This document shows, piece after piece, positions 678-42,445 of a DNA stretch of 64,000 bases. Location of the stretch: the sequence record MN850574.1. One strand, given 5' to 3'. Below the pieces are notes generated by a model that did no database searches, was not told the DNA's origin, and was given only the letters and a program-made list of their open reading frames with translations. This DNA is from Escherichia phage kaaroe. The translations under genes were made by a program, and so were the position numbers. The stretch's first letter is position 1, and each line of letters begins with the position of its first letter.

Positions 678-711
678 GACCGCATCAAATGAACGATGTG
701 AGGATTATATT

Positions 712-1020
712 ATGTTTATCTCTTCTGCTACTCCAGTTAAAGTTTACGGCGAAACTGTGTATCTTCCGGCTGGCTATCGCTATGTTATCGTTGACCGTCA
801 CGGTGTAGTGTATGCTTTTAAAGGCCGTCCGGTTGAGATTGATTCTGAATACGGTACATGGGGATATAAAGCCGCATACATGGATATTCCTGATTTGGGA
901 GTACGTTTAGGAAGATTTGATAATGATGTTAAACCATGCTTGATTAAGTATGCATCCTATGGTAAAACTGTTAAACCAAATAGCGTCGGCTGGATTGATA
1001 ACGGCGTTAACGTGAAATAA
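712..1020 (+). CDS. hypothetical protein
   Basis: ATG 712 preceded by GAGGATTATATT leader; start refined from ORF 676..1020. Confidence 0.5.
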   Translation: MFISSATPVKVYGETVYLPAGYRYVIVDRHGVVYAFKGRPVEIDSEYGTWGYKAAYMDIPDLGVRLGRFDNDVKPCLIKYASYGKTVKPNSVGWIDNGVNVK

Positions 1021-1838: not shown

Positions 1839-2270
1839 ATGGTTTATCCAACCCCTAGTAAGATTTACATTGACGATACTCATTTTCTTGTTGAAATTAT
1901 GGGTATCAAGTTTAGTGGTAATGTTAAAATTGTAGAATGGGAATTGCACGGTCAATCTGTAACCGATTATGACCATTATATCCCTTTCGGTGGCGATGAT
2001 AACTTTGTTTCATTCGACCATGAAGGTTACATGAACTTTGAGCAAGACGATGTACCTTTGTATCTGGCAATGATGGATATTCCTACTAAAACAGAATATA
2101 CAGAGGGTGATTGCGATTGTTGCGGATACTACAGCGTAACAGATATTAAGCTGCTATCCGGTAAAGAACTTTACAAAGAGGATCATTTCGGAAACTGCAA
2201 TTTTCCGTGTGATTGGCAAGAATTTTTCGAACTGGTAGAGATTGAGCGAACTTATGTGAGGAAGGGATAA
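1839..2270 (+). CDS. hypothetical Cys-rich protein
   Basis: ORF with GAGGATTATATAATG start context; CDCCGYY and CNFPCDW motifs. Confidence 0.5.
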   Translation: MVYPTPSKIYIDDTHFLVEIMGIKFSGNVKIVEWELHGQSVTDYDHYIPFGGDDNFVSFDHEGYMNFEQDDVPLYLAMMDIPTKTEYTEGDCDCCGYYSVTDIKLLSGKELYKEDHFGNCNFPCDWQEFFELVEIERTYVRKG

Positions 2271-3396: not shown

Positions 3397-3870
3397 ATGT
3401 TACTGACTGCTAAGAGTGCTAAAGAGTACAAACAAGAACTATTCGAAAAACAGGGGGGCATTTGCCCCCTTTGTCAATTGCCACTTTTTGAGGATATGAG
3501 CAAAAACCATCTTGACCACGACCACGATCTAGATGGGAAAGGGCAAGGCCGCGTAAGGGGATTGCTTCATTCGTGTTGCAACCGCCTAGAAGGATCGTTG
3601 ACCGGAGACTTTAAACGGTTTGGTGTTGGTGCTTTAGGTGCTGATTTCGTTGTTTGGGCTACAAACTATGTTAATTACATCAAAGGAGACTACACCAACA
3701 ATCATTTACATCCTCAATATGCTGTTGATAAAGTAAAACGATTTTCACGCTTGACACGCGCGGAGATGGTTGATATTATGGACGCAGAAGGTTTCGATTA
3801 CTGCGACGCTGATACAAGAGAAGAGATCACGAAGAAGTATAAGAAACAATTTATACAAAGATTAAGATAG
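3397..3870 (+). CDS. 49: endonuclease VII (Holliday junction resolvase) gp49
   Basis: MLLTAK..CPLCQ..HLDHDH..RGLLHSCCN matches recalled T4 gp49 zinc-binding/H-N-H region. Confidence 0.85.
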   Translation: MLLTAKSAKEYKQELFEKQGGICPLCQLPLFEDMSKNHLDHDHDLDGKGQGRVRGLLHSCCNRLEGSLTGDFKRFGVGALGADFVVWATNYVNYIKGDYTNNHLHPQYAVDKVKRFSRLTRAEMVDIMDAEGFDYCDADTREEITKKYKKQFIQRLR

Positions 3871-9135: not shown

Positions 9136-9663
9136 ATGAAATCATTAAACCGTAAGCGTAAAGCACAACGACACAAAGAACGAGCTAAAAAGATTGCTAT
9201 TGAACTGGTTGAGCGTGAGGATAGCTATTTGTCTACGGGTCGTTTGTATACATTCCATGCATTGATTGATGGTAAGCCAGTGTTGCATAATCATGATTGC
9301 TTAGCACTGTTTCACGAGATCGAACCAATCCATCGTGAATGGGATGACAACAAAGCAAAAGGACAATATTTCCTTACTTGTTCGTGTGGTCATGCTGGAT
9401 GTGCTGGATATTGGGAACCTGTTACGATCCGTGAGAAAAATGATACTATTCAATGGGTCGCCCGTACCCGCGATGGTTATGATAAAGGTGCTGATGGTAC
9501 TGGCGATAACGTAGTTTACTTTAATCGTGATTGGTATTATATGGCGCGATGTATGATCCTGTTTTATCTTGACTCGATGCCGTATGAATATTTCAGTTTC
9601 CAGAATGGGACCGAACTGACAGGGAAGGAATGGTCTGAATACATTCGAAAAAATTTAAAATAA
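9136..9663 (+). CDS. hypothetical Cys-containing protein
   Basis: ATG 9136 after GAGGTG; CSCGHAGCAGYW motif. Confidence 0.5.
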   Translation: MKSLNRKRKAQRHKERAKKIAIELVEREDSYLSTGRLYTFHALIDGKPVLHNHDCLALFHEIEPIHREWDDNKAKGQYFLTCSCGHAGCAGYWEPVTIREKNDTIQWVARTRDGYDKGADGTGDNVVYFNRDWYYMARCMILFYLDSMPYEYFSFQNGTELTGKEWSEYIRKNLK

Positions 9664-17094: not shown

Positions 17095-17123
17095 TTGACG
17101 CGTGGAGAAATCCCCGTTATACT
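17095..17123 (+). promoter_or_regulatory. sigma70-type early promoter
   Basis: TTGACG 17095-17100, 17-nt spacer, TATACT 17118-17123. Confidence 0.5.
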
Positions 17124-17148
17124 CTCTAAAAATTGATTGGAGGTTGTT

Positions 17149-17400
17149 ATGATTACTAATGCATTGAAAGAAATCAACGAAGGTTTATCGAAATTCACTA
17201 AGATCCATGTATTTGAGGTTGTGCGAGATGGTCAGTATATGCTATCATTTCGATCTAACTATGGTTTGTGGACTCATGACGAAATCCCATTTGATCGTGA
17301 AAATATCACCAAAGAGGGGCTAACAAACATCGTATCCCGTAAGGTTGCTGATATTACCCAGAATGTTATTGCGCGTGGATCTATGGGGTCTGTACGATGA
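17149..17400 (+). CDS. hypothetical protein
   Basis: GGAGG RBS then ATG 17149. Confidence 0.45.
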   Translation: MITNALKEINEGLSKFTKIHVFEVVRDGQYMLSFRSNYGLWTHDEIPFDRENITKEGLTNIVSRKVADITQNVIARGSMGSVR

Positions 17401-21974: not shown

Positions 21975-22949
21975 ATGCTGAGTGTTAATGAAAATGAGTT
22001 TCAGTGGGAACAGAAATACCGTCCGAAATCAATTTCTGAATGTATTCTGCCGGAAGCAGATAAAAAGATCTTCGCGCAGATTGTTAAGCAAGGCCGAATC
22101 CCTTCTATGATCCTGCATAGCCCATCGCCGGGTACTGGTAAAACAACCGTTGCTAAGGCGCTTTGCGAAGATGTGGGTGTTGATTATCTGTTTGTTAACG
22201 GCGCAGATTGTAAGATTGATTTTATCCGCGATGAGATTACACGCTTTGCGCAGAGTGTATCACTCGATGAAGAAAAAAGAGAAAAAGGCAAAGTTGTTAT
22301 TATCGATGAGTATGACCGAGCGGGGTTGGCTGACGCTCAAAGACACTTGCGTAGTTTCTCTGAGGCATACTCAAACAATGTGACATTCATTATCACAGCA
22401 AACGATCTAGAAGGTATTATCCCAGCGTTACGATCTCGATTTGACCCCATAACGTTTGGATCTCCGACTAAAGATGATCAGCTTCGCATGATGAAAGAAA
22501 TGATCGTCCGGTGTAAAGCAATTCTTGATAAAGAAGGTGTGCCAGTAGAAGAAATGCGCGTATTAGCGGAACTGGTTAAACAGAACTTCCCAGACTTCCG
22601 ACGCGTAATGAAACTTTTGGACCGCTACGCTAAACATGGTAAAATTGATGCTGGCGTATTGAGCATGGTTATCGAAAGTAGCAATACCGAAGTAACCGAT
22701 GTGGTGGAAGCACTTAAAACTAAACAGTTTGCTAATGTGCGTAAACTTGCGCCGCGATATACCAATACATACGCTCAATTTGTCAAGAAACTTTATAATG
22801 AGTTGTATACTCAAGTTAAGCCAGCTTCTATTATTCGTCTCACTGAGATTATCGGTGAAAATAATCAGATGTTTGCACACGCGGCTGATAAAGAGATTCA
22901 CATTGTCTTTTTGTTAATGCAATTAATGGTTGAATTGGAGTTCGTATAA
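21975..22949 (+). CDS. 44: clamp loader large subunit gp44
   Basis: EQKYRP..HSPSPGTGKTTVAKAL Walker A, IDEYDR, SRC-like region; colinear with recalled T4 gp44. Confidence 0.9.
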   Translation: MLSVNENEFQWEQKYRPKSISECILPEADKKIFAQIVKQGRIPSMILHSPSPGTGKTTVAKALCEDVGVDYLFVNGADCKIDFIRDEITRFAQSVSLDEEKREKGKVVIIDEYDRAGLADAQRHLRSFSEAYSNNVTFIITANDLEGIIPALRSRFDPITFGSPTKDDQLRMMKEMIVRCKAILDKEGVPVEEMRVLAELVKQNFPDFRRVMKLLDRYAKHGKIDAGVLSMVIESSNTEVTDVVEALKTKQFANVRKLAPRYTNTYAQFVKKLYNELYTQVKPASIIRLTEIIGENNQMFAHAADKEIHIVFLLMQLMVELEFV

Positions 22950-30860: not shown

Positions 30861-31180
30861 TTGGATTTAAACAGTTTGTTGAAGAAAATAAACTCAAAGA
30901 AGATATGACCGCTGGCGATGCTGGCGGCAATCCTGAGAAGATCGCAGCAGGTGAAACGAGCGGATCTATTACCAATCGTGGACCTAGTGTAGCGGGTAAA
31001 GAAAAACGCAAAAAGGAGAAAGACGGTGCTTAGTATCATCATGTTTATCGTTGGCTTGCTGTCCGCTATTATCGGTGTTGTTGTTTTCGGATTATCTGGA
31101 CACAAAACAAAAACAGAAAAGTTATCCGAGATCACAATGTATGTTGGTGTAGTTCTCATTCTGTTGTCGGTGGCGCTTAA

Positions 31181-31384
31181 ATGATTACGATGAAATGTCT
31201 TAAAAGCACATATGCACTTTTTGAAGCCGGAAAAGAATATGAATTTACAGAACTTGATTCGGTAGGCCGTTTTCGTGTATTCTCTTACACATCGCCAGAT
31301 GGTAGTGTCTACAAATTTGGCTTAGATGAAAACGGAGAGAATGAAAATGAAAGTGTAGGAACTTTCATGAAATTTGAGCTATAA
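31181..31384 (+). CDS. hypothetical protein
   Basis: Small ORF upstream of primase. Confidence 0.4.
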   Translation: MITMKCLKSTYALFEAGKEYEFTELDSVGRFRVFSYTSPDGSVYKFGLDENGENENESVGTFMKFEL

Positions 31385-31393
31385 GAGGTTATT

Positions 31394-32422
31394 ATGATTT
31401 ACTACGCAGATTATGAAATAGCGGAAAAAGCCATATACGGCGAACGAAATTTTAAACGGTTGCATACTAGCTCATTTACGCTGGTCTGTAGTTGTCCGAT
31501 CTGCGGTGACTCAAAGAAAAATCATACTCAAGCGCGATTCCGTATCTATACCTATAAAGATAGTTTGCGTTGTGGTTGTTTCAACTGTAACTACAATCAG
31601 CCGTTAGGTGAATTTCTCAAACAGTATAAGCCGGACCTATTCAGGGAATGGCTTATGGAACGACGGAAGGAACAAGGCGACCACAAGAACACCACGTTCA
31701 AGCCACTGAAAAAGGTAGAAAAGCCGGAGATTAAGAAAGTGCAAACATTGCCTTTCTGCGAGAGATTAGATACTCTTCCGGCTAATCATCCTATAATAAA
31801 GTATGTCAGTGATCGTTGCATCCCTCACGATAAATGGGATCTTCTGTATTTCACGAGAGAATGGCAAAAGGTAGCAAATCACATTAAGGCTGATACTTTC
31901 AAGAATCCACAACCTGAACCGCGTTTAGTGATTCCTATCTTTAACCGAGAGAACAAGATAGAATCCATTCAGGGGCGAGCATTGAGAAAGGATTACGGAA
32001 AGACCAAATATATGACGATTAAAACTCATGAGTTAGCGAGTAAGGTCTATGGTCTTGAACGAGCCGATCCGAGTAAACCAGTGTATTTCTTAGAAGGTCC
32101 GATCGATTCATTGTTTATTGATAACGGGTGTGCAATTACTGGCGGTACTTTGGGATTAGATGAAATTCCTTTCCCTGATCAGCGAGTGTTTGTACTTGAT
32201 GCGGAACCACGGTCTGCCGATACAATGCACCGACTGGAAAAGTTTATCAATGCAGGGGAAAAGATTGTATTGTGGGACCGTTGCCCGTGGCATTCTAAAG
32301 ACGTTAACGCCATGATTCAAGACGAGGGCGCTACACGCGACCAGATCATGGAATATATCAAAGAGAACACCGTACAAGGTCTGATGGCTAAAATGCGGTT
32401 TATGAAATATTGTAAATTTTAA
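31394..32422 (+). CDS. 61: DNA primase gp61
   Basis: N-terminal zinc ribbon CPICGDSKKN..CFNCNY, EPRLVIPI, EGPIDSLFI and GATRDQIMEY colinear with recalled T4 gp61. Confidence 0.9.
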   Translation: MIYYADYEIAEKAIYGERNFKRLHTSSFTLVCSCPICGDSKKNHTQARFRIYTYKDSLRCGCFNCNYNQPLGEFLKQYKPDLFREWLMERRKEQGDHKNTTFKPLKKVEKPEIKKVQTLPFCERLDTLPANHPIIKYVSDRCIPHDKWDLLYFTREWQKVANHIKADTFKNPQPEPRLVIPIFNRENKIESIQGRALRKDYGKTKYMTIKTHELASKVYGLERADPSKPVYFLEGPIDSLFIDNGCAITGGTLGLDEIPFPDQRVFVLDAEPRSADTMHRLEKFINAGEKIVLWDRCPWHSKDVNAMIQDEGATRDQIMEYIKENTVQGLMAKMRFMKYCKF

Positions 32423-32436
32423 TTAATGAGGTGAAT

Positions 32437-32955
32437 ATGTCAGAATTTAATTCTTGTGCTGGTCTGGTTAACGAAAAAGATATTAACGCGGCTATCGCCG
32501 CATATCATCACGCGATTGCAGAAGGTAAAGATCCGTTTCAGGTGATGCTCGAAATGCAAACTGGTTTGCAGGTTGCATTATCCGAAAAATTTGATTGGGT
32601 CCCAAATCCAACTAAGCTAGAGACTTGCGGTGAAATGCTGGATTGGATGCAACGGATGGATGACGCTATCGCAGACGAAACACGAGAGCTTTACACATCG
32701 CTGGGTGGAATGTCCAATGGTAAAGATGCAAGTGCAATCTGGAAAATGTGGAAAAAGAACCACGGAGAAGCGCGAGCGCGTAAATTCTCTGAACTGTCAC
32801 CGGAAGATCAGCTTGAAGTGAAATTTGAATTTGTGGACGCGATCCACTTCATTCTGTCAAAGATGATCCCGCTGGGTATTGACGCTCAAGAACTCTTTAT
32901 TCTGTACTATCTGAAAAATGCTGAAAACTTCGCCCGTCAAGAACGCGGCTACTAA
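32437..32955 (+). CDS. 56: gp56-like dCTP pyrophosphatase (MazG-like all-alpha NTP pyrophosphatase)
   Basis: Position after gene 61 and C-terminal LSPEDQLEVKFEFVD..LYYLKNAENFARQ acidic-helix pattern; sequence match to T4 gp56 is from memory only. Confidence 0.5.
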   Translation: MSEFNSCAGLVNEKDINAAIAAYHHAIAEGKDPFQVMLEMQTGLQVALSEKFDWVPNPTKLETCGEMLDWMQRMDDAIADETRELYTSLGGMSNGKDASAIWKMWKKNHGEARARKFSELSPEDQLEVKFEFVDAIHFILSKMIPLGIDAQELFILYYLKNAENFARQERGY

Positions 32956-32962
32956 AAATTAG

Positions 32963-32991
32963 TTGACACTACTCTATAATGGTTTTATTAT
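32963..32991 (+). promoter_or_regulatory. sigma70-type early promoter
   Basis: TTGACA 32963-32968, 17-nt spacer, TATTAT 32986-32991. Confidence 0.5.
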
Positions 32992-33021
32992 GCCTCCCGT
33001 CGAAAGATTGGAGGCTTTTTT
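32992..33021 (+). other. hairpin plus U-run that includes the Shine-Dalgarno of the downstream gene
   Basis: GCCTCC 32992-32997 pairs with GGAGGC 33010-33015, then TTTTTT; ATG at 33025. Confidence 0.5.
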
Positions 33022-33024
33022 ATT

Positions 33025-33528
33025 ATGCAATTTACACCAGAAGAACTTAACATCATTGATGAAGTGATGAACTCTAAAGAAAATATCGATATGTCGATCC
33101 TTAATGGATTGATCGAAAAGACTGAGCGGTTAGTGCATCATGAAGCCTTGTATCGCGGTGTGAGCAAAAGAGAAGGCCGTAAGCTGGATACCTTAATTGT
33201 TGGTGATTCTTTCGTTGTAGAGCGTCCTATGAGCTTTACGCCACTGCAATCAACAGCAGAGGACTTTGCAACCGATGTTTATGCAACAGGAAAGATTATT
33301 GCAATAAAACCTACCAAGCCTTGCATGAATTATTACGAACATGCTATTGACCGAGTGGTGTCTAAAGAGTATGACAATCCGACTACTCGACTGTCTTTGT
33401 ATGCTATGTTGGCAGATGAGCGCGAGTGCATATACAAGACAGGGACGACCATGATCCTTGATGAGATCGAGGAAGTTTACGCGTGTAACGGCGATCTGAT
33501 AGAGATTTACAAATTTTCTTTAATTTAA
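33025..33528 (+). CDS. putative ADP-ribosyltransferase-like protein (Mod-like)
   Basis: Ordered YRG, SFT/QST and ExE (DEIEE) motifs in R-S-E spacing; sits where T4 has modA/modB. Confidence 0.35.
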   Translation: MQFTPEELNIIDEVMNSKENIDMSILNGLIEKTERLVHHEALYRGVSKREGRKLDTLIVGDSFVVERPMSFTPLQSTAEDFATDVYATGKIIAIKPTKPCMNYYEHAIDRVVSKEYDNPTTRLSLYAMLADERECIYKTGTTMILDEIEEVYACNGDLIEIYKFSLI

Positions 33529-33531
33529 GTG

Positions 33532-33560
33532 TTGACAGGACAAACCAGATAGACAATAAT
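33532..33560 (+). promoter_or_regulatory. sigma70-type early promoter with conserved leader
   Basis: TTGACA 33532-33537, about 17-nt spacer, AATAAT 33555-33560; leader ATAATACACACATACCAA..AAGGAGAATCAA. Confidence 0.5.
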
Positions 33561-33589
33561 ACACACATACCAACTAAGGAGAATCAATT

Positions 33590-34345
33590 ATGAAACTGTT
33601 TGCTTTTAAATCTAACGAAGAATTGGCGCTGGTTGTTTTCCGGCTGAACTCTATCATGGCTGGCGCTTCACGTCGCAACAAAGACTTCTCTATGAGCTTA
33701 GTCACTGTGCGTAACATTTACCGTCAGACTCATTGCGCCTATTCAGGTGAAGCGTTCGGTGAAGGTGATGATGGACTCTCCTTAGAGCGCATTGATTGCA
33801 ATCTGGGATATGTTGATGGCAATGTAATTCCGGTTAAACTGAAATACAATTCTTTCCGTGGAAATCACACTATCGAATCTCTTAAAGAGATCCAGGAACT
33901 GGGAACTAACGGTAAACTTTCTGATGATGAAATTGCCCTACGTGCGAAGTACATCGAGTGGATCGAACTTAACGAGAATCGCATCAAAAATCAGGAAATG
34001 GCAATCGAAGAAAAGAAATTAGCAATCGAGCGCCACAAAAAGCACAACGAACCGGAGAAAGCAGAGGCAGCCGAGCGAGCGATTAAAAATACTCTCTTCC
34101 GTATGGAAGAACGTTATCAGAAAATTGCAGATCTCAAGCAAGCACTTAGCGAAATCAACAAGAAAGAAGAAAAACTTAAGGCTATTGCAAACAATACCGA
34201 AATCGTGCTAAAATATACCAGCGTTTTGATTGAATCTCTTTCTAAGTATGAGAACTTAACGCCAGCACAAAAAGAACGCGTGAAATACGGGCTTCCGATT
34301 GATGCGTCGTGGATTGAATTGATGAAAGCGAAGGTAGGTTTATAA
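33590..34345 (+). CDS. hypothetical protein with long coiled-coil segment
   Basis: ORF with AAGGAG RBS; charged helical region AIEEKKLAIERHKK.. Confidence 0.5.
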   Translation: MKLFAFKSNEELALVVFRLNSIMAGASRRNKDFSMSLVTVRNIYRQTHCAYSGEAFGEGDDGLSLERIDCNLGYVDGNVIPVKLKYNSFRGNHTIESLKEIQELGTNGKLSDDEIALRAKYIEWIELNENRIKNQEMAIEEKKLAIERHKKHNEPEKAEAAERAIKNTLFRMEERYQKIADLKQALSEINKKEEKLKAIANNTEIVLKYTSVLIESLSKYENLTPAQKERVKYGLPIDASWIELMKAKVGL

Positions 34346-34659
34346 TGCATGTATTTGCTGTATGTTATCGTGATAAAGACGGATTCTTTCAATACTCAGT
34401 GGACGCGAAAGGTCGCGTCCTAACTTGCGAAACACATGATGCTGCGTTAGCGTCAATGTGTGATCAGATAGATTATTGTGAGAGTCTATTGGCGGGTGAA
34501 CCGAAATACAAGGTTGTACCTAAACGAAAATTTGGCATAATCCGGTCTTCTGAAATTGTTCGGGATGGTATCGAATATAAAATTCCTGAATATGAAAAAG
34601 AACGGGTACGGCGAGAACTCAATACTATCTGTGTTCGCAAGGTGAGGATTTTAGGATAA
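34345..34659 (+). CDS. hypothetical protein
   Basis: ORF with overlapping start. Confidence 0.45.
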   Translation: MHVFAVCYRDKDGFFQYSVDAKGRVLTCETHDAALASMCDQIDYCESLLAGEPKYKVVPKRKFGIIRSSEIVRDGIEYKIPEYEKERVRRELNTICVRKVRILG

Positions 34660-36050
34660 TGAGCAGAGTATTAACTTTCGATATGTTAACAGACGGGCAA
34701 AAACATGCTTTTGATGTTCTAATGAAACGCATTGAACAAAAGAAGCATACAACTGTCCGTGGTGCGGCGGGTACTGGTAAAACCGCAATGATGAAATTCA
34801 TTGTTCAGGAAATGGTCCGCCGTGGTGTAACTGGTGTGGTTTTGGCAACGCCTACCCACCAGGCTAAAAAAGTTTTGAGTAAAGCGGTAGGTCGTCAAGC
34901 ATTTACTTTACATGCACTACTGCGACTAAACCCGACCAACTATGAAGATACTCAAGTATTTGAGCAAAAAGATACTCCTAAGCTAGATGATGTTCAGATC
35001 ATCATTGTTGATGAAGCGAGTATGGTCGATAAGAAACTATTTGATATTCTCATGAAGAGTATCAACGGTCGAATTGTTATTATTGCCGTGGGTGATCTGT
35101 ACCAGTTACGACCAGTTGATCCGAGCGGTGCAACGTCGATCTCTCCTTTCTTCACCGATGAAAGGTTTCAGAATGTAGAACTTACAGAGATTAAACGATC
35201 TAATGCGCCAATAATTGATGTGGCGACCGCTGTCCGTAATGGTAAATGGGTATTCGAAAAGCAGTGCGGTAACGAGGGTGTATTCCATAGCTCAACTCTG
35301 CCGGAGTTTATGAAGCATTATTTCGAAACCGTTAAAACGCCGGAAGACCTTCTAGAAAACCGTATTCTGGCCTACACTAACAAGAGCGTCGAAAAACTCA
35401 ATGAAATTGTGCGTAAGCGCGTTTATAACACCGATGAACCAGTGATTGTAGATGAAATTCTGGTTACTCAGGAACCATTGATCGAATATCTGCGAGATGA
35501 ACGCGGGAAGAAGATTCCCAATGTTATTTTTAACAATGGTGAGATGATCCGAGTTAAAGAGGTCATCCCGCGTGAATTTACATTACGTTGCACGGGGGTA
35601 GATCCGCAACCAGTTTTAGGATATACTCTGAAAGTGGAAAGCGTCGATGATGACGAAGACAAAGAAATCCTAAATCAGAAAGTCGGTTTAGATGCAGTCG
35701 GAATCACTACAGATAAACCAGATTTAGTAGAAATCAACATTCTGACAGAACAACGTCAGAAGAACATTTTCTCTATCTATCTGAATACGGTCGCCGGACA
35801 ATATCGCGAAATGAAGAAAGAGAATCCAAAATTTAAACCAGATTGGGATTCCTTCTGGACGATGAAGCGTATGTTCTTGAATGTAAAAGCATTACCAGCT
35901 TGCACCATTCATAAGTCACAAGGGATCAGCGTAGACCGCGTGTTCCTGTATACTCCTTGCATGTGTACAGACAATGTTGACTTTGAACTGGCAATGCAGT
36001 TATTATATGTGGGTGTTACCCGTGCGCGGTATCGAGTAGACTATATTTGA
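34659..36050 (+). CDS. dda: DNA helicase Dda (SF1)
   Basis: LTDGQKHAFD..GAAGTGKT Walker A, IIVDEASM, GDLYQLRPV, C-terminal VGVTRAR; colinear with recalled T4 Dda. Confidence 0.9.
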   Translation: MSRVLTFDMLTDGQKHAFDVLMKRIEQKKHTTVRGAAGTGKTAMMKFIVQEMVRRGVTGVVLATPTHQAKKVLSKAVGRQAFTLHALLRLNPTNYEDTQVFEQKDTPKLDDVQIIIVDEASMVDKKLFDILMKSINGRIVIIAVGDLYQLRPVDPSGATSISPFFTDERFQNVELTEIKRSNAPIIDVATAVRNGKWVFEKQCGNEGVFHSSTLPEFMKHYFETVKTPEDLLENRILAYTNKSVEKLNEIVRKRVYNTDEPVIVDEILVTQEPLIEYLRDERGKKIPNVIFNNGEMIRVKEVIPREFTLRCTGVDPQPVLGYTLKVESVDDDEDKEILNQKVGLDAVGITTDKPDLVEINILTEQRQKNIFSIYLNTVAGQYREMKKENPKFKPDWDSFWTMKRMFLNVKALPACTIHKSQGISVDRVFLYTPCMCTDNVDFELAMQLLYVGVTRARYRVDYI

Positions 36051-37317: not shown

Positions 37318-37416
37318 GTCATATACTTGACAATCACTCAATTTTTAATATGATTGTTGCAGCCGTCTTTGTGGCGGTTGCAGTAAGTTATGGTTATGTT
37401 ATGAAGAGGTTTAATA

Positions 37417-39240
37417 ATGAGTGAGTTTCGCATTTTATCTGATCGTGAACATGTCCTTAAGCGTGCAGGAATGTATATAGGATCAACAACTTACGAAGAA
37501 CATCAACGTTTCCTGTTCGGTAAATGGACAAAAATTTCATACGTTCCTGGACTGGTTAAAATCATTGATGAGATCATCGACAACTCTGTAGACGAGGCGA
37601 TCCGCACTAACTTTGAATTTGCCAATGTGATTAGCGTCGATATCCAAAACAATATTGTTACTGTAACAGACAATGGTCGCGGTATTCCTCAACATATGGT
37701 TACTACCCCAGAGGGTACGCAGATTCCGCAACCTGTCGCCGCATGGACACGAACAAAAGCAGGGTCTAACTTTGATGATACCAATCGATTAACGCAAGGG
37801 ATGAACGGTGTGGGGTCGTCGTTGTCAAATTTCTTTAGCGATTGGTTTACTGGTGTGACCTGTGACGGCGAAACAGAAATGACCGTTCAATGTACAAACG
37901 GTGCTGAAAATATCACATGGTCATCGAAACCATCAAAATTGAAGGGAACAAAGGTTACATTTTGCCCAGACTTCGACCACTTCGAAGGTTATATGATGGG
38001 CAACTCTGTTTTAGATATTGTTCATGATCGTCTGCAATCATTGAGCGTAATATTTCCTAAGATCACGTTTAAGTTTAATGGTAAACGTATTGTTAGTAAG
38101 TTCAAGGATTATGCTAAACTATACAATGATGATCCGTTTGTCATTGAAGATAAAAACTTTTCACTTGCCCTAGTTCCTGCGGTCGAGGGAGAAGGTTTTA
38201 AATCAGTATCCTTTGCTAATGGTCTGTTTACCAAAAACGGGGGAACACACGTTGATTATGTGACAGATGATCTTTGTGAAGAGATTGTAAAACGAATCAA
38301 GAAAGAATATAAGGTTGATGTTACTAAAGCTGCGGTTAAGTCTGGATTGACCTGTATTCTTATTGTTCGTGAATTGCCTAACCTTCGTTTTGATTCACAG
38401 ACAAAAGAACGATTGACTAATCCAACTGGTGATATCAAGCGTCATATTGATCTTGATTTTAAAAAGCTGGCTAAAGTCATTGCTAAGAAAGAAAACATTA
38501 TCATGCCTATTATTGCTGTAGTCCTGGCACGCAAAGAGGCAGCAGATAAAGCGGCAGCGACTAAGGCAGCAAAGGCAGCGAAACGGGCTAAGGTGGCAAA
38601 ACACGTTAAAGCTAACCTTATTGGAACTGACGCAGAAACTACCCTGTTTTTGACGGAAGGTGATTCCGCGATCAACTATCTGATCTCTGTACGTGATCAA
38701 GATTTACATGGAGGTTTCCCGTTGCGAGGCAAAACTCTTACAACGTGGGAACAACCGGAGGCAAAGATCGTTAAGAACGCCGAAATTTTTAACATCATGG
38801 CGATCACTGGCTTGCAATTTGGTGTTGATGCATTGGAAGTTATGCAATACAAAAATATTGCGATTATGACCGACGCTGATACTGACGGGATCGGGTCTAT
38901 TAAACCTAGTCTGATCTCTTTCTTTGCACGTTGGCCTGAATTGTTCGAAGATGGACGAATCCGGTTTATCAAAACACCTATTATCATTGCGGAACCAAAG
39001 AAAGGTGATGATGTTCGATGGTATTATGACCTAGAAGATTTCGAGAACGACCGAGATAATATCAAAGGTTACAACATTCGATATATCAAAGGTTTAGCAT
39101 CGCTCACAGAATCAGACTATCATCGCGTGATCAACGATCCTGTCATGGAGATCATCACGTTACCGGAAAACTATAAAGAGCTATTCGATTTGCTCTATAG
39201 TGAAGATGCAGATCAGCGCAAAATTTGGATGCAATCATAA
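37417..39240 (+). CDS. 39: topoisomerase II large (GyrB-like ATPase) subunit gp39, unsplit
   Basis: RPGMYIGS-like N-terminus, GHKL ATPase motifs (DNGRGIP), TOPRIM region; continuous 607-aa ORF. Confidence 0.9.
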   Translation: MSEFRILSDREHVLKRAGMYIGSTTYEEHQRFLFGKWTKISYVPGLVKIIDEIIDNSVDEAIRTNFEFANVISVDIQNNIVTVTDNGRGIPQHMVTTPEGTQIPQPVAAWTRTKAGSNFDDTNRLTQGMNGVGSSLSNFFSDWFTGVTCDGETEMTVQCTNGAENITWSSKPSKLKGTKVTFCPDFDHFEGYMMGNSVLDIVHDRLQSLSVIFPKITFKFNGKRIVSKFKDYAKLYNDDPFVIEDKNFSLALVPAVEGEGFKSVSFANGLFTKNGGTHVDYVTDDLCEEIVKRIKKEYKVDVTKAAVKSGLTCILIVRELPNLRFDSQTKERLTNPTGDIKRHIDLDFKKLAKVIAKKENIIMPIIAVVLARKEAADKAAATKAAKAAKRAKVAKHVKANLIGTDAETTLFLTEGDSAINYLISVRDQDLHGGFPLRGKTLTTWEQPEAKIVKNAEIFNIMAITGLQFGVDALEVMQYKNIAIMTDADTDGIGSIKPSLISFFARWPELFEDGRIRFIKTPIIIAEPKKGDDVRWYYDLEDFENDRDNIKGYNIRYIKGLASLTESDYHRVINDPVMEIITLPENYKELFDLLYSEDADQRKIWMQS

Positions 39241-40336: not shown

Positions 40337-42445
40337 ATGAAAATGCATATTGATAATGAAGAAGTATTTGGCAGTGACTTGAGCGGTGCGGTTGATTTTT
40401 CACTGAAAGCAAGTAGCAAGGCTTTTATGGTGCTTTCTAAGAACACTTATCAATATTGTGAACGTGCTTGCGTCCGTGAGTATTCGTGCAATGCTACCGA
40501 CACTCACAAAGAAGCCGGAACCTTAGATCGTCCGTTTGATATTCATTTACCGACTGCAATCGAACCGTATTTTTCTGTGCGTGATTATGGTACTGGTATT
40601 CCGTCTAAGAAAGAATTAGAACAACTGTTTACGGTTTACTTTGAATCAACAAAAGACCAGACTAATGATTATATCGGATCTTTTGGTTTAGGTGCGAAAT
40701 CTGCTTATAGCTATACCGACACCTTTACAATCGTAAACTATTACAATGGTCGCGCTTATGGCTTTACGGCATTTGTGCAAAACTCTATGCCGAAAATGGT
40801 GCAGATTTTCGACGAACCGACCTATGAAGACAACGGTCTGAAAATCACTATTCCGGTGAAAGAAAAAGACATTCAGACATGGCATCGAGAAGCGCAATTT
40901 GTACTGCGTCATTTTGGGGAACACAAACCTAATATCAATGCAATCGAAATTAATTATTTCCCTAGCTTTGATAATTATTATGTGTGTAATGGGCGTGATA
41001 ACGATTCCTATGTAGTATATGCAATCATGGGTAAGATCCAGTATCCGATCCCGTATGAATATGTTCGCGGAACATGGTTAGAAGCTGTAAACCGCCAGCA
41101 CCAGACCATTTACATTAATTTTGAGTTGGGTGATCTGGACCTTATGCCATCGCGTGAAGAAGTTCACTTGTCAATTGAGACTAAAGCGAACATCGAAAAA
41201 CGCATTGCAGAAATCAATGAAATGATGTTGGAAAAGGTTAAAGAAAAGATCGCCAACATTAAAACAGAGCGTAAACTTGCGCAATTTATGAGCGAGTATT
41301 CATCGACTCAACGCAATATTATTAGCAAGATGGGTAAGATCGGACAATGGGACGATCCGGTAGCAATCTATAATAAGTTTGTTAATGCGGGTAAAGATTC
41401 GCCTAATGACGTAGAAGGTCAGGTGTATACTCTGTATCGTACTCGTCACACAATAAGTAAATTGCGCCCTGCTTTCGTTAGCAGTCAATACAACATTACG
41501 CATTTTGTATGGATGCATAAAGAAGATATTACGTGTCTTATTGATGATACCGATAAACCGAAACTGCGTGCACTGACTCTTAACGGCATGGTCCAGGAAT
41601 ACGGCATCAATAAAAAGGTACTGGTGTTCCGTCAGAAAAACGAAAAACATATGGAGACTTTCGAGTACATCAAACAGTATTATGATGATTCTGAAATGAC
41701 CGTGATTAAAGTGTCTGAGGCCGATGATCTGCGTGCTAAAGCAGTTAAACCGGAGAAGACCGAGCGTACACAACGTGAAGCGACTCCTAAGCTGCCTAAC
41801 GTGTATATCATGGAAAAGATTGGTGACAGTTGGCATAAAACCAGCCATCACATGAAAGCGGCAGAGATTCGCGAGTTATCAGGCTTGCACATGTTCCGCG
41901 TAGGTGATGCATTCGAAAGCCGTAGTCGTAAATCGATCCATAGTGAAAATACATTACACACGGCGCTTGACTACTTCGGGGTAACAAAGTATATTATTAC
42001 TCGAAACGAGACACAAAAATATCTCGTTGACGAACAATTGGAATGTGCGCTAGAATTTGTTCGCGGTAAGCTGGCTGGTCTGGCTAAGAAGGTTAAGACC
42101 AATCATCTGGGGTATGGCGAATATCTGGGTGTGATCACTATGTTGTTTCATGACGATGAACTAGAACGCTGTGTTCCAGAATTTATTGACAGACTGTACG
42201 GTCGTCATTATAATAAAGAGGTTTCCAAGTTACTCCTTCGTACTCGTTGGATTATGGACGCAGAAACTAAAAAGATTTGTGATGAAAAATTCACGGTAGC
42301 AAACGAACGAATTAAAGCAGTTTGTGCGAAGTTTAAAGAGAATAGCCCGTTACTGTATGATATTGTAGATAACTGGTATCGTATTCTGCATAATGACAAA
42401 CGCGCACAAGACTTTATGAAACTGGTTAAGAATGTTAAATTTTAA
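40337..42445 (+). CDS. rIIA: rIIA protein (membrane-associated, GHKL-type ATPase-like domain)
   Basis: SKAFMVLSKN..YQ, LPTA..SVRDYGTGIP, GSFGLGAKSAYSYTDTF and GLKITIPV colinear with recalled T4 rIIA. Confidence 0.9.
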   Translation: MKMHIDNEEVFGSDLSGAVDFSLKASSKAFMVLSKNTYQYCERACVREYSCNATDTHKEAGTLDRPFDIHLPTAIEPYFSVRDYGTGIPSKKELEQLFTVYFESTKDQTNDYIGSFGLGAKSAYSYTDTFTIVNYYNGRAYGFTAFVQNSMPKMVQIFDEPTYEDNGLKITIPVKEKDIQTWHREAQFVLRHFGEHKPNINAIEINYFPSFDNYYVCNGRDNDSYVVYAIMGKIQYPIPYEYVRGTWLEAVNRQHQTIYINFELGDLDLMPSREEVHLSIETKANIEKRIAEINEMMLEKVKEKIANIKTERKLAQFMSEYSSTQRNIISKMGKIGQWDDPVAIYNKFVNAGKDSPNDVEGQVYTLYRTRHTISKLRPAFVSSQYNITHFVWMHKEDITCLIDDTDKPKLRALTLNGMVQEYGINKKVLVFRQKNEKHMETFEYIKQYYDDSEMTVIKVSEADDLRAKAVKPEKTERTQREATPKLPNVYIMEKIGDSWHKTSHHMKAAEIRELSGLHMFRVGDAFESRSRKSIHSENTLHTALDYFGVTKYIITRNETQKYLVDEQLECALEFVRGKLAGLAKKVKTNHLGYGEYLGVITMLFHDDELERCVPEFIDRLYGRHYNKEVSKLLLRTRWIMDAETKKICDEKFTVANERIKAVCAKFKENSPLLYDIVDNWYRILHNDKRAQDFMKLVKNVKF

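Follow-up and report, generated by a model that had tools for sequence, protein, structure and literature searches.

The region between gene 56 and the modB-like gene of Escherichia phage kaaroe raises the question of how a gene can be expressed when its Shine-Dalgarno sequence (SD) forms one arm of a terminator-like hairpin. In the window, i.e., the whole 64,000-nt stretch of DNA analysed here (sequence record MN850574.1), which is 99.6% identical to phage RB49, both genes are separated by a 69-nt gap (32956-33024) that contains the entire cassette, with gene 56 closing the upstream 61-56 transcription unit. An earlier annotation made from the letters of the window (the sequence-only reading) had placed a promoter at 32963-32991, followed by the hairpin, six U residues and the ATG at 33025, and had named GGAGG as the sole ribosome-binding site (RBS). 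All these positions were confirmed on the sequence, and no other SD-like motif was found 5' of the ATG, from which GGAGG is 10 nt distant. The features of the region are the following:

32431-32955, + strand: gene 56 (dCTPase/dUTPase), from the list of open reading frames (ORFs), the RB49 annotation 56 and a Pfam dUTPase_2 match
32953-32955, + strand: stop codon TAA of gene 56, from the ORF list
32953-32962, + strand: A/T-rich, UP-like stretch TAAAAATTAG 5' of the -35 hexamer, corresponding to the AT-rich part of a promoter-early stem-loop (PeSL), from the sequence and the PeSL definition
32963-32968, + strand: -35 hexamer TTGACA, from the sequence; minus_35_signal in GEC-3S; invariant in 15 cassette variants
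32969-32985, + strand: promoter spacer of 17 nt, which holds a fortuitous, non-conserved TATAAT at 32975-32980
32986-32991, + strand: -10 hexamer TATTAT, from the sequence; minus_10_signal in GEC-3S
32992-32997, + strand: GCCTCC, promoter discriminator (predicted -6 to -1) and 5' arm of the hairpin (anti-SD mimic), from folding and the register of other PeSL promoters
32998-32999, + strand: predicted transcription start, C32998 or G32999, from the distance to the -10, the C-rich -3 to -1 and the end of the published model
32999-33008, + strand: inner stem-loop GUC-GAAA-GAU (3 bp and a GNRA tetraloop) capping the hairpin, from the minimum-free-energy structure; invariant in relatives
33010-33015, + strand: GGAGGC, 3' arm of the hairpin containing the SD GGAGG (33010-33014), from folding; ribosome_binding_site within the annotated terminator of Makalu_002
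33016-33021, + strand: U6 tract of the terminator, also the SD-to-AUG spacer, from the sequence; 5 to 7 long among relatives
33025-33528, + strand: modB-like ADP-ribosyltransferase gene (167 aa, ATG at 33025), from the ORF and PHROG 832

The protein encoded by the modB-like gene matched PHROG 832 ('RNA polymerase ADP-ribosylase', E = 1e-20), while a Pfam search gave no match at E <= 0.01. The homologous gene is annotated as modB in RB49, Phi1 and JSE, and the protein is 28-30% identical to those of the T4-type ModB genes listed. ModB belongs to the early proteins, its over-expression is lethal, and it modifies ribosomal protein S1 (RNAylation).

With regard to the promoter, TTGACA-17-TATTAT matches the sigma-70 consensus at 11 of 12 positions. 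Matches of at least 11/12 occur 29 times on the + strand of the window and 0 times on the - strand, where about 0.9 per strand would be expected. The analysis thus supports a real sigma-70-type early promoter, abutting a terminator-like hairpin whose 3' arm is the SD. Promoter and terminator were both already known: the supplementary tables of Nolan et al. 2006 catalogue the RB49 early promoter Pe:9496 (9446-9496), equivalent to window positions 32949-32999, and the TransTerm terminator 'modB<--56' (9430-9453), equivalent to 32992-33015. In GenBank, the annotation of sister phages includes the promoter in GEC-3S and the terminator plus RBS in Makalu_002 and Makalu_003, and three more records have a terminator at the position of the cassette. 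Given the published HMM score of Pe:9496, which is 11.3 where the top RB49 early promoters reach 30-47, the promoter of the modB cassette may be weak.

Several lines of evidence converge on a predicted transcription start at 32998/32999, 7-8 nt past the -10. Other PeSLs in the window present the -10, six mostly C-rich bases (ACTCCC, GTCCCC) and A(+1)TC, and the modB cassette reads TATTAT-GCCTCC-C/G in the same register; the RB49 early consensus has C at -3 to -1, consistent with 5'-end mapping; and the published 51-nt model of Pe:9496 terminates at window position 32999 (Nolan et al. 2006). The transcript had been proposed to start inside the hairpin. A start in this region was retained, and its predicted position was refined to just 3' of the outer 5' arm, at the mismatched base of the stem (C32998) or the base that follows. 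GCCTCC, which is part of the published promoter model and of the published terminator alike, would hence occupy -6 to -1, so that RNA from the own promoter would lack the 5' arm and could not form the hairpin. Two other promoter assignments were rejected. The spacer TATAAT (32975-32980) was dismissed as the true -10, since no -35 lies at a distance of 16-18 nt from it and both JSE and FL20 deviate from this sequence. A late promoter with a switch of the T4 gene e type was ruled out, as the late promoter motif TATAAATA is absent from the + strand across the whole window.

The full hairpin, GCCUCC-C-GUC-GAAA-GAU-U-GGAGGC (32992-33015; 24 nt), contains an interior C.U mismatch and has a folding energy of -15.0 kcal/mol (z = -4.2 to -4.5), with 0-1 of 200 dinucleotide shuffles folding equally well. 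It dominates the ensemble, with a frequency of 0.81-0.95 and no alternative antiterminator pairing. Its GC-rich stem of 9 bp (6 + 3) is followed directly by six U, lies 37 nt past the stop codon of gene 56 and thus 3' of a transcription unit, and was called by TransTerm with confidence 100 (Nolan et al. 2006). These properties are those of an intrinsic terminator and, together with the sister-phage annotations mentioned above, they bear out the proposal that the hairpin could terminate read-through out of gene 56, a function that we regard as credible on these structural grounds. A pattern-based terminator scan of the window did not list this hairpin, probably because its rule, taken literally, requires a continuous stem with a loop of 3-8 nt and the stem here is broken by the C.U mismatch. 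Bidirectional termination was considered and rejected, since no U-run follows the stem on the reverse strand.

The accessibility of the SD was predicted as a function of the 5' end. For RNA whose 5' end lies at 32992 or further upstream (starts 32431-32992), the predicted probability of an unpaired SD was 0.000, i.e., the SD is paired in a stable helix. With a start at 32998 or 32999, the folding energy was only -3.7 or -2.3 kcal/mol, respectively, and the predicted probability rose to 0.39-0.48. The predicted cost of opening the SD was 13.4 kcal/mol in read-through RNA versus 2.3 kcal/mol in own-promoter RNA. Among the 17 promoter-proximal genes of the window, modB showed the largest difference between read-through and own RNA (+8.9 kcal/mol); values for 15 of the other 16 lay between -3.2 and +3.6, the exception being the gene at 17095 with +5.5. 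Masking would therefore be limited to RNA entering from upstream, as only such RNA carries both arms. The sequence-only reading, which had made translation of modB dependent on melting or processing of the hairpin, is thus partly supported: the overlap of promoter, terminator and SD stands, and the hairpin-dependent translation finds no support, as predicted own-promoter RNA lacks the 5' arm, folds at -2 to -4 kcal/mol and leaves the SD 39-48% unpaired.

Such dependence would be expected if the hairpin were part of the modB mRNA, either because transcription started upstream of 32992 or because the promoter were inactive and modB were served by read-through only, with attenuation and with translation by way of melting or nucleolytic processing. 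The low HMM score would fit this scheme, as would the perfect TATAAT in the spacer, whose use would set +1 near 32987 and leave the whole hairpin in the RNA, and the toxicity of ModB makes a very low expression plausible. Furthermore, RB49 encodes RegB, and the T4 modB RNA is a cut target of this nuclease at its GGAG. However, RegB is inhibited by secondary structure and so would not open the stem; the spacer TATAAT lacks a -35 partner and conservation, as stated above, while TTGACA and TATTAT are conserved at the optimal 17-nt spacing; and in all other PeSL promoters the register has +1 following a six-base discriminator. In addition, T4-type modB leaders share the geometry of an arm upstream of +1, which is sensible only with a productive proximal promoter. 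Taken together, we consider a hairpin retained in the modB mRNA to be quite improbable.

Instead, we favor, as the probable explanation, a PeSL-type composite cassette of an RB49-like phage (Krischvirus), in which overlapping promoter, terminator and RBS tie ModB to its own immediate-early promoter and insulate it from upstream transcription. The complementarity of GCCUCC after the -10 to GGAGGC would give rise to two kinds of RNA. Read-through RNA from the 61-56 unit would carry both arms, form the 9-bp hairpin followed by U6 and mostly terminate, and any RNA escaping termination would have a fully paired modB SD and be poorly translated. Own-promoter RNA, starting at around 32998/32999, would form no hairpin, would not be terminated and would present a free SD within a 26-nt leader. 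What was obtained here is the sequence anatomy, the thermodynamics, the conservation, the family membership and the presence of the same logic at modB of the T4 subfamily. We infer where +1 lies, how efficient termination is and what follows for translation. If termination is efficient, masking of the few escaping transcripts adds little, and the overlap with the SD might in that case reflect nothing more than compaction.

Many riboswitch expression platforms have a terminator that overlaps the SD. The overlap found here resembles them, and a regulated leader was accordingly considered, in the form of a riboswitch, an attenuator or a protein switch (RegB/S1, or ModB autoregulation via ADP-ribosylated S1) toggling between terminator and antiterminator. 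The U-rich tract beside the SD could bind S1, which is itself modified by ModB. Against this, neither an aptamer, an antiterminator nor a known RNA family was found in the modB leader: Rfam gave no match at E <= 1 in 31000-35000, the ensemble described above contains no antiterminator pairing, and the own-promoter leader of 26 nt is too short for an aptamer. Moreover, GGAGG is followed by CUUUUUU, which is not the A-rich RegB/S1 consensus. A regulated leader of this kind is therefore very improbable.

The cassette was found in all 58 matching Krischvirus records. Among 15 variants drawn from GenBank, IMG/VR and metagenomes, changes were restricted to the spacer, one -10 base (TATTGT in L004), the mismatched base of the stem and the length of the U-run; both hairpin arms were invariant, and so were the hexamers with the exception of that -10 base. 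No covariation could be obtained for the modB hairpin, since its stem arms are invariant in all 15 of these Krischvirus-type variants. It is in the spacer that substitutions among relatives cluster, with CAATCAAT in JSE and TATCAT in FL20 instead of TATAAT. JSE and G37-3 also carry the insertion of a homing endonuclease (HNH) gene that ends 2 nt from the -35 and replaces TAAAAATTAG. A scan of IMG/VR yielded one divergent relative with a ModB 75% identical, in which the intergenic cassette is 94% identical compared to 69-76% for the coding flanks; the high conservation continues into the two genes, over about 45 nt of gene 56 and about 60 nt of modB. This conservation island resembles a recombination mosaic no less than RNA-level selection. 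A single metagenome scan returned near-identical loci only. No second clear case of an SD serving as a terminator 3' arm was found in the window plus 50 kb of RB49 (about 114 kb). A weak analogue of this arrangement was observed at 17095, and RB49 gene 53 shows an analogue with a late promoter.

This mosaic pattern bears on the alternative of compaction devoid of regulatory meaning, in which a terminator arm came to reuse the SD through PeSL recombination, with the terminator insulating modB and the SD masking being unselected. A promoter of 29 nt, a terminator of 30 nt and an RBS of about 15 nt exceed the 69-nt gap, and CTCCC, common after the -10 in PeSLs, is complementary to any SD. PeSLs are described as recombination hot spots (Arbiol et al. 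2010, PMC2839356; Comeau et al. 2014, PMC4122927), the insertion in JSE and G37-3 ends next to the -35, and the modB overlap is the only clear case in about 114 kb. On the other hand, modB is a clear outlier among the 17 promoter-proximal genes of the window, and the same masking is found at modB in five genera of the Tevenvirinae, where it is achieved by unrelated, non-terminator hairpins with compensatory changes. Its recurrence there argues that the masking itself is selected at modB. We regard compaction devoid of regulatory meaning as unlikely.

The composite cassette that we favor would explain how one gene for a host-modifying ADP-ribosyltransferase, lethal when over-made, is insulated from upstream transcription in a compact genome, with a single 24-nt hairpin acting as terminator, promoter discriminator and RBS. 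Its practical importance is small, and it opens no long-standing question. Nevertheless, a terminator annotated before a start codon in RB49-like phages need not mean poor translation, and the design offers a model for insulated expression cassettes of very small size.

Regarding the comparison with known systems, a PeSL is described in RB49 and phi1 as an AT-rich stretch, a consensus -35/-10 and a stem-loop, with an SD and ATG at its 3' end (Arbiol et al. 2010, PMC2839356; Comeau et al. 2014, PMC4122927). Five positional subclasses are distinguished, in one of which the stem-loop is 3' of the -10, and 51 PeSLs are listed for RB49, typically of the form G(n)-loop-C(n). Termination by one PeSL stem-loop in vivo roughly equals that of rrnB T1, and one PeSL yields about 13,000 Miller units; the in vivo promoter and terminator activities given by the authors concern PeSLs 193/192, 206/205 and 211/210 and not the modB cassette. 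By its sequence anatomy, the modB cassette fits this class: it is intergenic in an RB49/phi1-type genome, has the near-consensus hexamers preceded by the AT-rich stretch and a stable stem-loop that begins 1 nt after the -10, and ends in an SD, here inside the stem-loop, and a start codon. Both share the phage species group, TTGACA-17-TAnnnT and a stem-loop attenuating upstream transcription (predicted for modB), and the modB leader has TCGAAA in common with other PeSLs and is likewise associated with indels (the HNH gene in JSE and G37-3). In contrast, most PeSLs of the window have their stem-loop across or before the -10, as GGGAGTA-(-10)-ACTCCC, with the 3' arm ending at -1, whereas in the modB cassette the C-rich box that follows the -10 serves as the 5' arm and pairs with the SD, 3' of +1. 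The modB stem-loop is not of the G(n)-loop-C(n) type, and it carries a U6 tail, while 39244 and 21886 are the only other PeSLs of the window after which a T-run was noted. With 10 nt between them, the SD and the AUG are further apart than at other PeSLs (8 nt), which counts against the explanation that we favor. With canonical intrinsic terminators, the hairpin shares the GC-rich stem, the GNRA tetraloop, the folding energy, U6 and the TransTerm call, and it differs from them in that the 5' arm overlaps a promoter, the 3' arm is the SD and it is not bidirectional.

The logic predicted from sequence for modB is the same as that of the T4 genes e, soc, 49 and I-TevI, in which a hairpin masking the translation initiation region contains the promoter; long upstream RNAs with both arms are not translated, while RNAs from the proximal promoter, devoid of the 5' arm, are (reviewed in PMC3014915). 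In T4, the order is gene 56, segF and soc, with soc roughly in the position of modB here. Pairing of the SD in upstream-initiated RNA and a proximal start 3' of the masking arm are both predicted for modB, the latter on the basis of its spacing from the -10, the family register and the published model. However, the proximal promoters of those T4 genes are late (TATAAATA) and delay expression, whereas the early sigma-70 promoter of modB would confine expression to the early period, and the T4 hairpins have no U-run and are not terminators. The modB cassette appears to work like this family and is not a member in the strict T4 sense.

Finally, nine Tevenvirinae modB leaders were compared (T4, RB69, JS98, S16, Q7622 and IMG/VR loci). 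In these, a 12-bp helix, with 94% of cells paired and compensatory changes at 3 pairs, pairs the -10/discriminator with the SD and the AU of the start codon; in T4, the 5' arm is TATGAT-AGCUUCUG. The predicted opening cost is 13-20 kcal/mol for read-through versus 0.6-6.6 kcal/mol for own-promoter RNA, comparable to the 13.4 versus 2.3 kcal/mol predicted for the cassette analysed here, and modA-type paralogues do not have this helix. The T4 modB leader structure was alluded to by Durand et al. 2006 (PMC1702504), and no description of promoter-gated masking of the modB SD as a T4-like trait was found in the literature searched. Such masking, if shared across T4-like genera, may be of interest for research on ModB (S1 RNAylation) or on T4 gene timing. 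Both types have an early promoter, a 5' arm upstream of the predicted +1 and GGAGG in the 3' arm, although their hairpins show no sequence homology. In the Tevenvirinae, the -10 hexamer is part of the 5' arm, the 3' arm runs through the AUG and, with no U-run, the role of the hairpin is limited to masking; in the RB49 type, the discriminator alone makes up the arm, the AUG is free and U6 makes the hairpin a terminator too. We tentatively suggest, as a possibility with nearly even chances, that promoter-gated masking of the modB SD is a conserved trait of T4-like phages (T4, RB69, JS98, S16, Kanagawavirus-type and, independently, the RB49 group), by which the toxic transferase would be made only from own-promoter RNA and never from read-through, the RB49 group having fused the mask with an intrinsic terminator.

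Sequence reading of 32700–33300, together with an exact coordinate check, confirmed that a promoter, a hairpin, a U6 tract and the modB ATG succeed one another between genes 56 and modB (hereafter, the cassette), exactly where the sequence-only reading had placed them. The elements are as follows:

32953–32955, plus strand: gene 56 stop codon, TAA
directly after the gene 56 stop codon and before the −35, plus strand: TAAAAATTAG
32963–32968, plus strand: −35 hexamer, TTGACA
between −35 and −10, plus strand: promoter spacer of 17 nt
32986–32991, plus strand: −10 hexamer, TATTAT
32992–32997, plus strand: GCCTCC, 5′ arm of the hairpin, then C32998
32999–33008, plus strand: inner stem-loop GTC-GAAA-GAT, then T33009
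33010–33015, plus strand: GGAGGC, 3′ arm of the hairpin
33016–33021, plus strand: T-run TTTTTT, then ATT
33025, plus strand: modB start codon, ATG

The GGAGG in the stem had also been taken for the sole ribosome-binding site (RBS), and no other Shine-Dalgarno (SD)-like sequence was found 5′ of the ATG. In a consensus scan, the promoter matched the sigma-70 consensus at 11 of 12 positions. Matches of at least 11/12 in the whole window numbered 29 on the plus strand and none on the minus strand, against a chance expectation of about 0.9 ± 0.95 per strand, so that a plus-strand match directly 5′ of a gene is very unlikely to be accidental. Further plus-strand matches lie, for example, at 3751, 5877, 10266, 20063, 40228, 42186 and 49309; for several, the nearest start codon is more than 70 nt away, and these may sit within ORFs rather than in intergenic gaps. 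The RNA of 32992–33021 folded as ((((((.(((....))).)))))) at −15.0 kcal/mol, with an ensemble frequency of 0.81–0.95 and a z-score of −4.2 to −4.5, and 0–1 of 200 shuffles were equally stable. This hairpin was absent from the list of the built-in terminator scan of the window, whose rule, as worded, appears to fit only an uninterrupted stem with a loop of 3–8 nt, a fit that the C·U mismatch would break.

The region, which carries genes 61 (primase), 56 (dCTPase), modB and srd, shared 99.6% identity with coliphage RB49 (Krischvirus). The Mod-like protein matched PHROG 832 ('RNA polymerase ADP-ribosylase', E = 1e-20), and a Pfam search with it returned no match. The cassette elements themselves are already catalogued, since the RB49 early promoter 'Pe:9496' (9446–9496, minus strand, HMM score 11.3) and the TransTerm terminator 'modB<--56' (9430–9453, confidence 100, 10 bp), both in the supplement of Nolan et al. 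2006 (PMC1524935), convert (window x = RB49 position 42445 − x) to window 32949–32999 and 32992–33015, respectively. Similarly, the identical −35 and −10 are annotated in the GEC-3S record, a terminator with the RBS within it in the Makalu_002 and Makalu_003 records, and a terminator under the cassette in three more records.

Promoter-early stem-loops (PeSLs), defined in RB49 and phi1 at about 50 per genome, join an AT-rich stretch, a sigma-70 promoter of consensus type and a stable stem-loop to the SD and ATG of the gene that follows; the stem-loop attenuates upstream transcription, with termination by one of them about equal to that of rrnB T1, and one PeSL yielded approximately 13,000 Miller units (Arbiol et al. 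2010, PMC2839356). All the sequence features of a PeSL were present in the cassette, which has the leader motif TCGAAA in common with two other PeSLs. It is a PeSL-type promoter/terminator/RBS cassette of RB49-like phages that had been catalogued before. PeSLs abound in the window, the commonest form being TTGACA-...GGGAGTA-(-10)-ACTCCC-A(+1)TC..., in which the stem-loop spans the −10 and −1 is the last base of its 3′ arm. The cassette is unusual in that GCCTCC, the C-rich box that follows its −10, forms the 5′ arm and has as its partner the SD, which lies 3′ of the transcription start.

Two further promoters of the window deserve mention. At 37327–37417 (plus strand), TTGACA-16-TATGAT is followed at once by a 14-bp hairpin (37354–37386) that lacks a U-run, and the gene downstream encodes 607 aa; the promoter's predicted +1 falls within the 5′ arm, and part of the hairpin would therefore stay in its own transcript. 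The modB-srd gap (33529–33589, plus strand) contains another early promoter, TTGACA-17-AATAAT, which has been published as Pe:8927 and has no stem-loop, so modB transcripts should run on into srd, dda.1 and dda. The product of the srd-like gene (33590–34345, plus strand) matched PHROG 1400 (Srd anti-sigma factor, E = 6e-74), as well as HNH endonuclease, endonuclease and endonuclease VII PHROGs (E = 1e-4 to 3e-12) and 'decoy of host sigma70'.

In the aligned PeSLs of the window, six mostly C-rich bases separate the −10 from the start; RB49 early promoters carry C at −3 to −1, and their consensus agrees with mapped 5′ ends (Nolan et al., PMC1524935); and the published 51-nt model of the cassette promoter ends at window 32999. 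For these reasons the start, previously placed inside the hairpin, is predicted more exactly at C32998 or G32999, just past the outer 5′ arm. RNA with its 5′ end at 32998 or 32999 folded at −3.7 or −2.3 kcal/mol, respectively, and the hairpin was absent. In a partition-function scan, the SD had an unpaired probability of 0.000 for all 5′ ends from 32431 to 32992 and of 0.39–0.48 with the 5′ end at 32998/32999, and forcing 33008–33027 open cost 13.4 kcal/mol in RNA entering from the 61-56 unit (read-through RNA) and 2.3 kcal/mol in RNA from the cassette promoter (own RNA). Since the own RNA would have no hairpin and a partly free SD, the idea that translation awaits hairpin melting or processing is limited to RNA from gene 56, most of which should be terminated at the U6 tract anyway; given the predicted +1, the own RNA would be neither terminated nor SD-hidden. 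The earlier mechanism was thus half right: its terminator part held, whereas melting-dependent translation did not. A hairpin inside the modB mRNA requires either that transcription start upstream of 32992 or that the promoter be inactive, and the low HMM score of Pe:9496 is the only real support for this. Within the reach of the tools used, a riboswitch or attenuator was excluded, given that there was neither an Rfam match nor an alternative pairing, and that the leader is only 26 nt long.

We propose that 61-56 transcripts would end efficiently at 33016–33021, that read-through RNA escaping termination would be translationally silent, and that transcription from the cassette promoter would begin at 32998/32999, giving an RNA with its SD free. 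ModB is an early protein, lethal if over-expressed according to the literature, which offers a reason to make it from a single early promoter; RB49 has no MotA and no middle promoters (Nolan et al., PMC1524935). RB49 encodes RegB, which might cut the exposed GGAGG as an extra layer; the CUUUUUU that follows is a mismatch to the A-rich RegB/S1 consensus.

When the difference between read-through and own opening cost was calculated for 17 promoter-proximal genes in the window, modB was an outlier at +8.9 kcal/mol, with 15 of the 16 others between −3.2 and +3.6. The exception (+5.5 kcal/mol) was a weak version of the modB geometry, the PeSL at 17095–17151 (plus strand; TTGACG-17-TATACT), where CTCTCT after the −10 can pair with the GGAGG SD of an 83-aa ORF at 17149; opening its translation initiation region costs 8.2 kcal/mol in read-through and 2.7 in own RNA, a difference second to that of modB. 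A census of SDs within 3′ arms of stable hairpins in the window and 50 kb of RB49 revealed no second terminator-SD fusion. It did reveal, upstream of RB49 baseplate gene 53 (22532–22587, plus strand, of the RB49 locus NC_005066 42000–91999), a late promoter, TATAAATA, in the loop of a hairpin that masks the SD of this gene (CACCCU.../...GAGGGUG, −14.3 kcal/mol), an arrangement of the T4 gene-e type.

The cassette was present in all 58 matching Krischvirus records. Its 15 distinct copies differed by spacer substitutions, a change of the mismatched U to C, a U-run of 5–7 and a single −10 change (TATTGT for TATTAT, at the equivalent of window 32990, in IMGVR_UViG_3300045988_033703); both arms and all other hexamer bases were invariant, and no covariation of the RB49-type stem was found across these copies. 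A TATAAT in the spacer was not kept across copies, unlike the hexamers, which supports the promoter reading. In the relative IMGVR_UViG_3300005711_000037, ModB was 75%, the intergenic cassette 94% and the coding flanks 69–76% identical; an island of 92–97% nucleotide identity (about 32911–33090), which takes in some 45 nt at the end of gene 56, the cassette and some 60 nt at the start of modB, had flanks of 52–83%, with srd further downstream at 92%, a mosaic pattern suggestive of recombination at the cassette. JSE and G37-3 carry, between 56 and modB, an inserted HNH homing-endonuclease gene, with a junction corresponding to window 32961/32963:

JSE locus, 224–1144, opposite strand: HNH insert
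G37-3 locus, 215–1144, opposite strand: HNH insert

Homology to the window restarts 2 nt 5′ of the −35, and this insertion is the kind of indel that PeSLs reportedly mediate.

For the RB49 cassette taken alone, pure compaction, with masking not selected, is plausible; this reading is weakened by a parallel in the T4 subfamily, where the following modB leaders pair the −10/discriminator of their own early promoter with the modB SD and AUG:

T4 locus, 2115–2190, minus strand: modB leader
RB69 locus, 685–760, minus strand: modB leader
L018, L019, L021 and L030–L036 (comparison loci): modB leaders

The T4 early promoter, GTTTAC-17-TATGAT, directly precedes AGCUUCUG, which, with the −10, pairs with CGGAGGCUAUCAU of the modB SD/start codon (−20.8 kcal/mol, z = −3.8). 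Equivalent structures were found in RB69 (−22.9 kcal/mol, z = −4.2), JS98, S16, Q7622 and several IMG/VR phages. In an alignment of 14 distinct leaders, a 12-bp helix joins −10 positions 2–6 and the discriminator to the SD, the spacer and the AU of the start codon, with 94% of cells paired. Three helix pairs showed compensatory changes (e.g., A-U in seven and G-C in five leaders, or G-C in seven and A-U in five), which probably represent just two or three independent events. No shuffle matched the observed pairing or covariation score, and shifting the 3′ partners by 1–3 columns left 26–54% of cells paired, versus 77% for the whole proposed structure. Opening these leaders costs 13–20 kcal/mol in read-through and 0.6–6.6 in own-promoter RNA. 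No such difference was observed for modA-type paralogues with their own early promoter (2.4–3.4 versus 1.4–2.4 kcal/mol), which (L037–L042, phiC120) lack the helix and have an SD near the RegB consensus, GGAGAAUAAUAUG.

Although T4 modB RNA is stably structured in vitro, RegB cuts its GGAG in vivo (Durand et al. 2006). An explicit account of promoter-gated masking at modB was not found in searchable papers, and the apparent conservation of gating at modB across T4-like genera is the only mildly new element. The best-supported reading of the cassette is that of a promoter within a hairpin masking the translation initiation region, a known phage trick that here uses an early promoter and is fused to a terminator.
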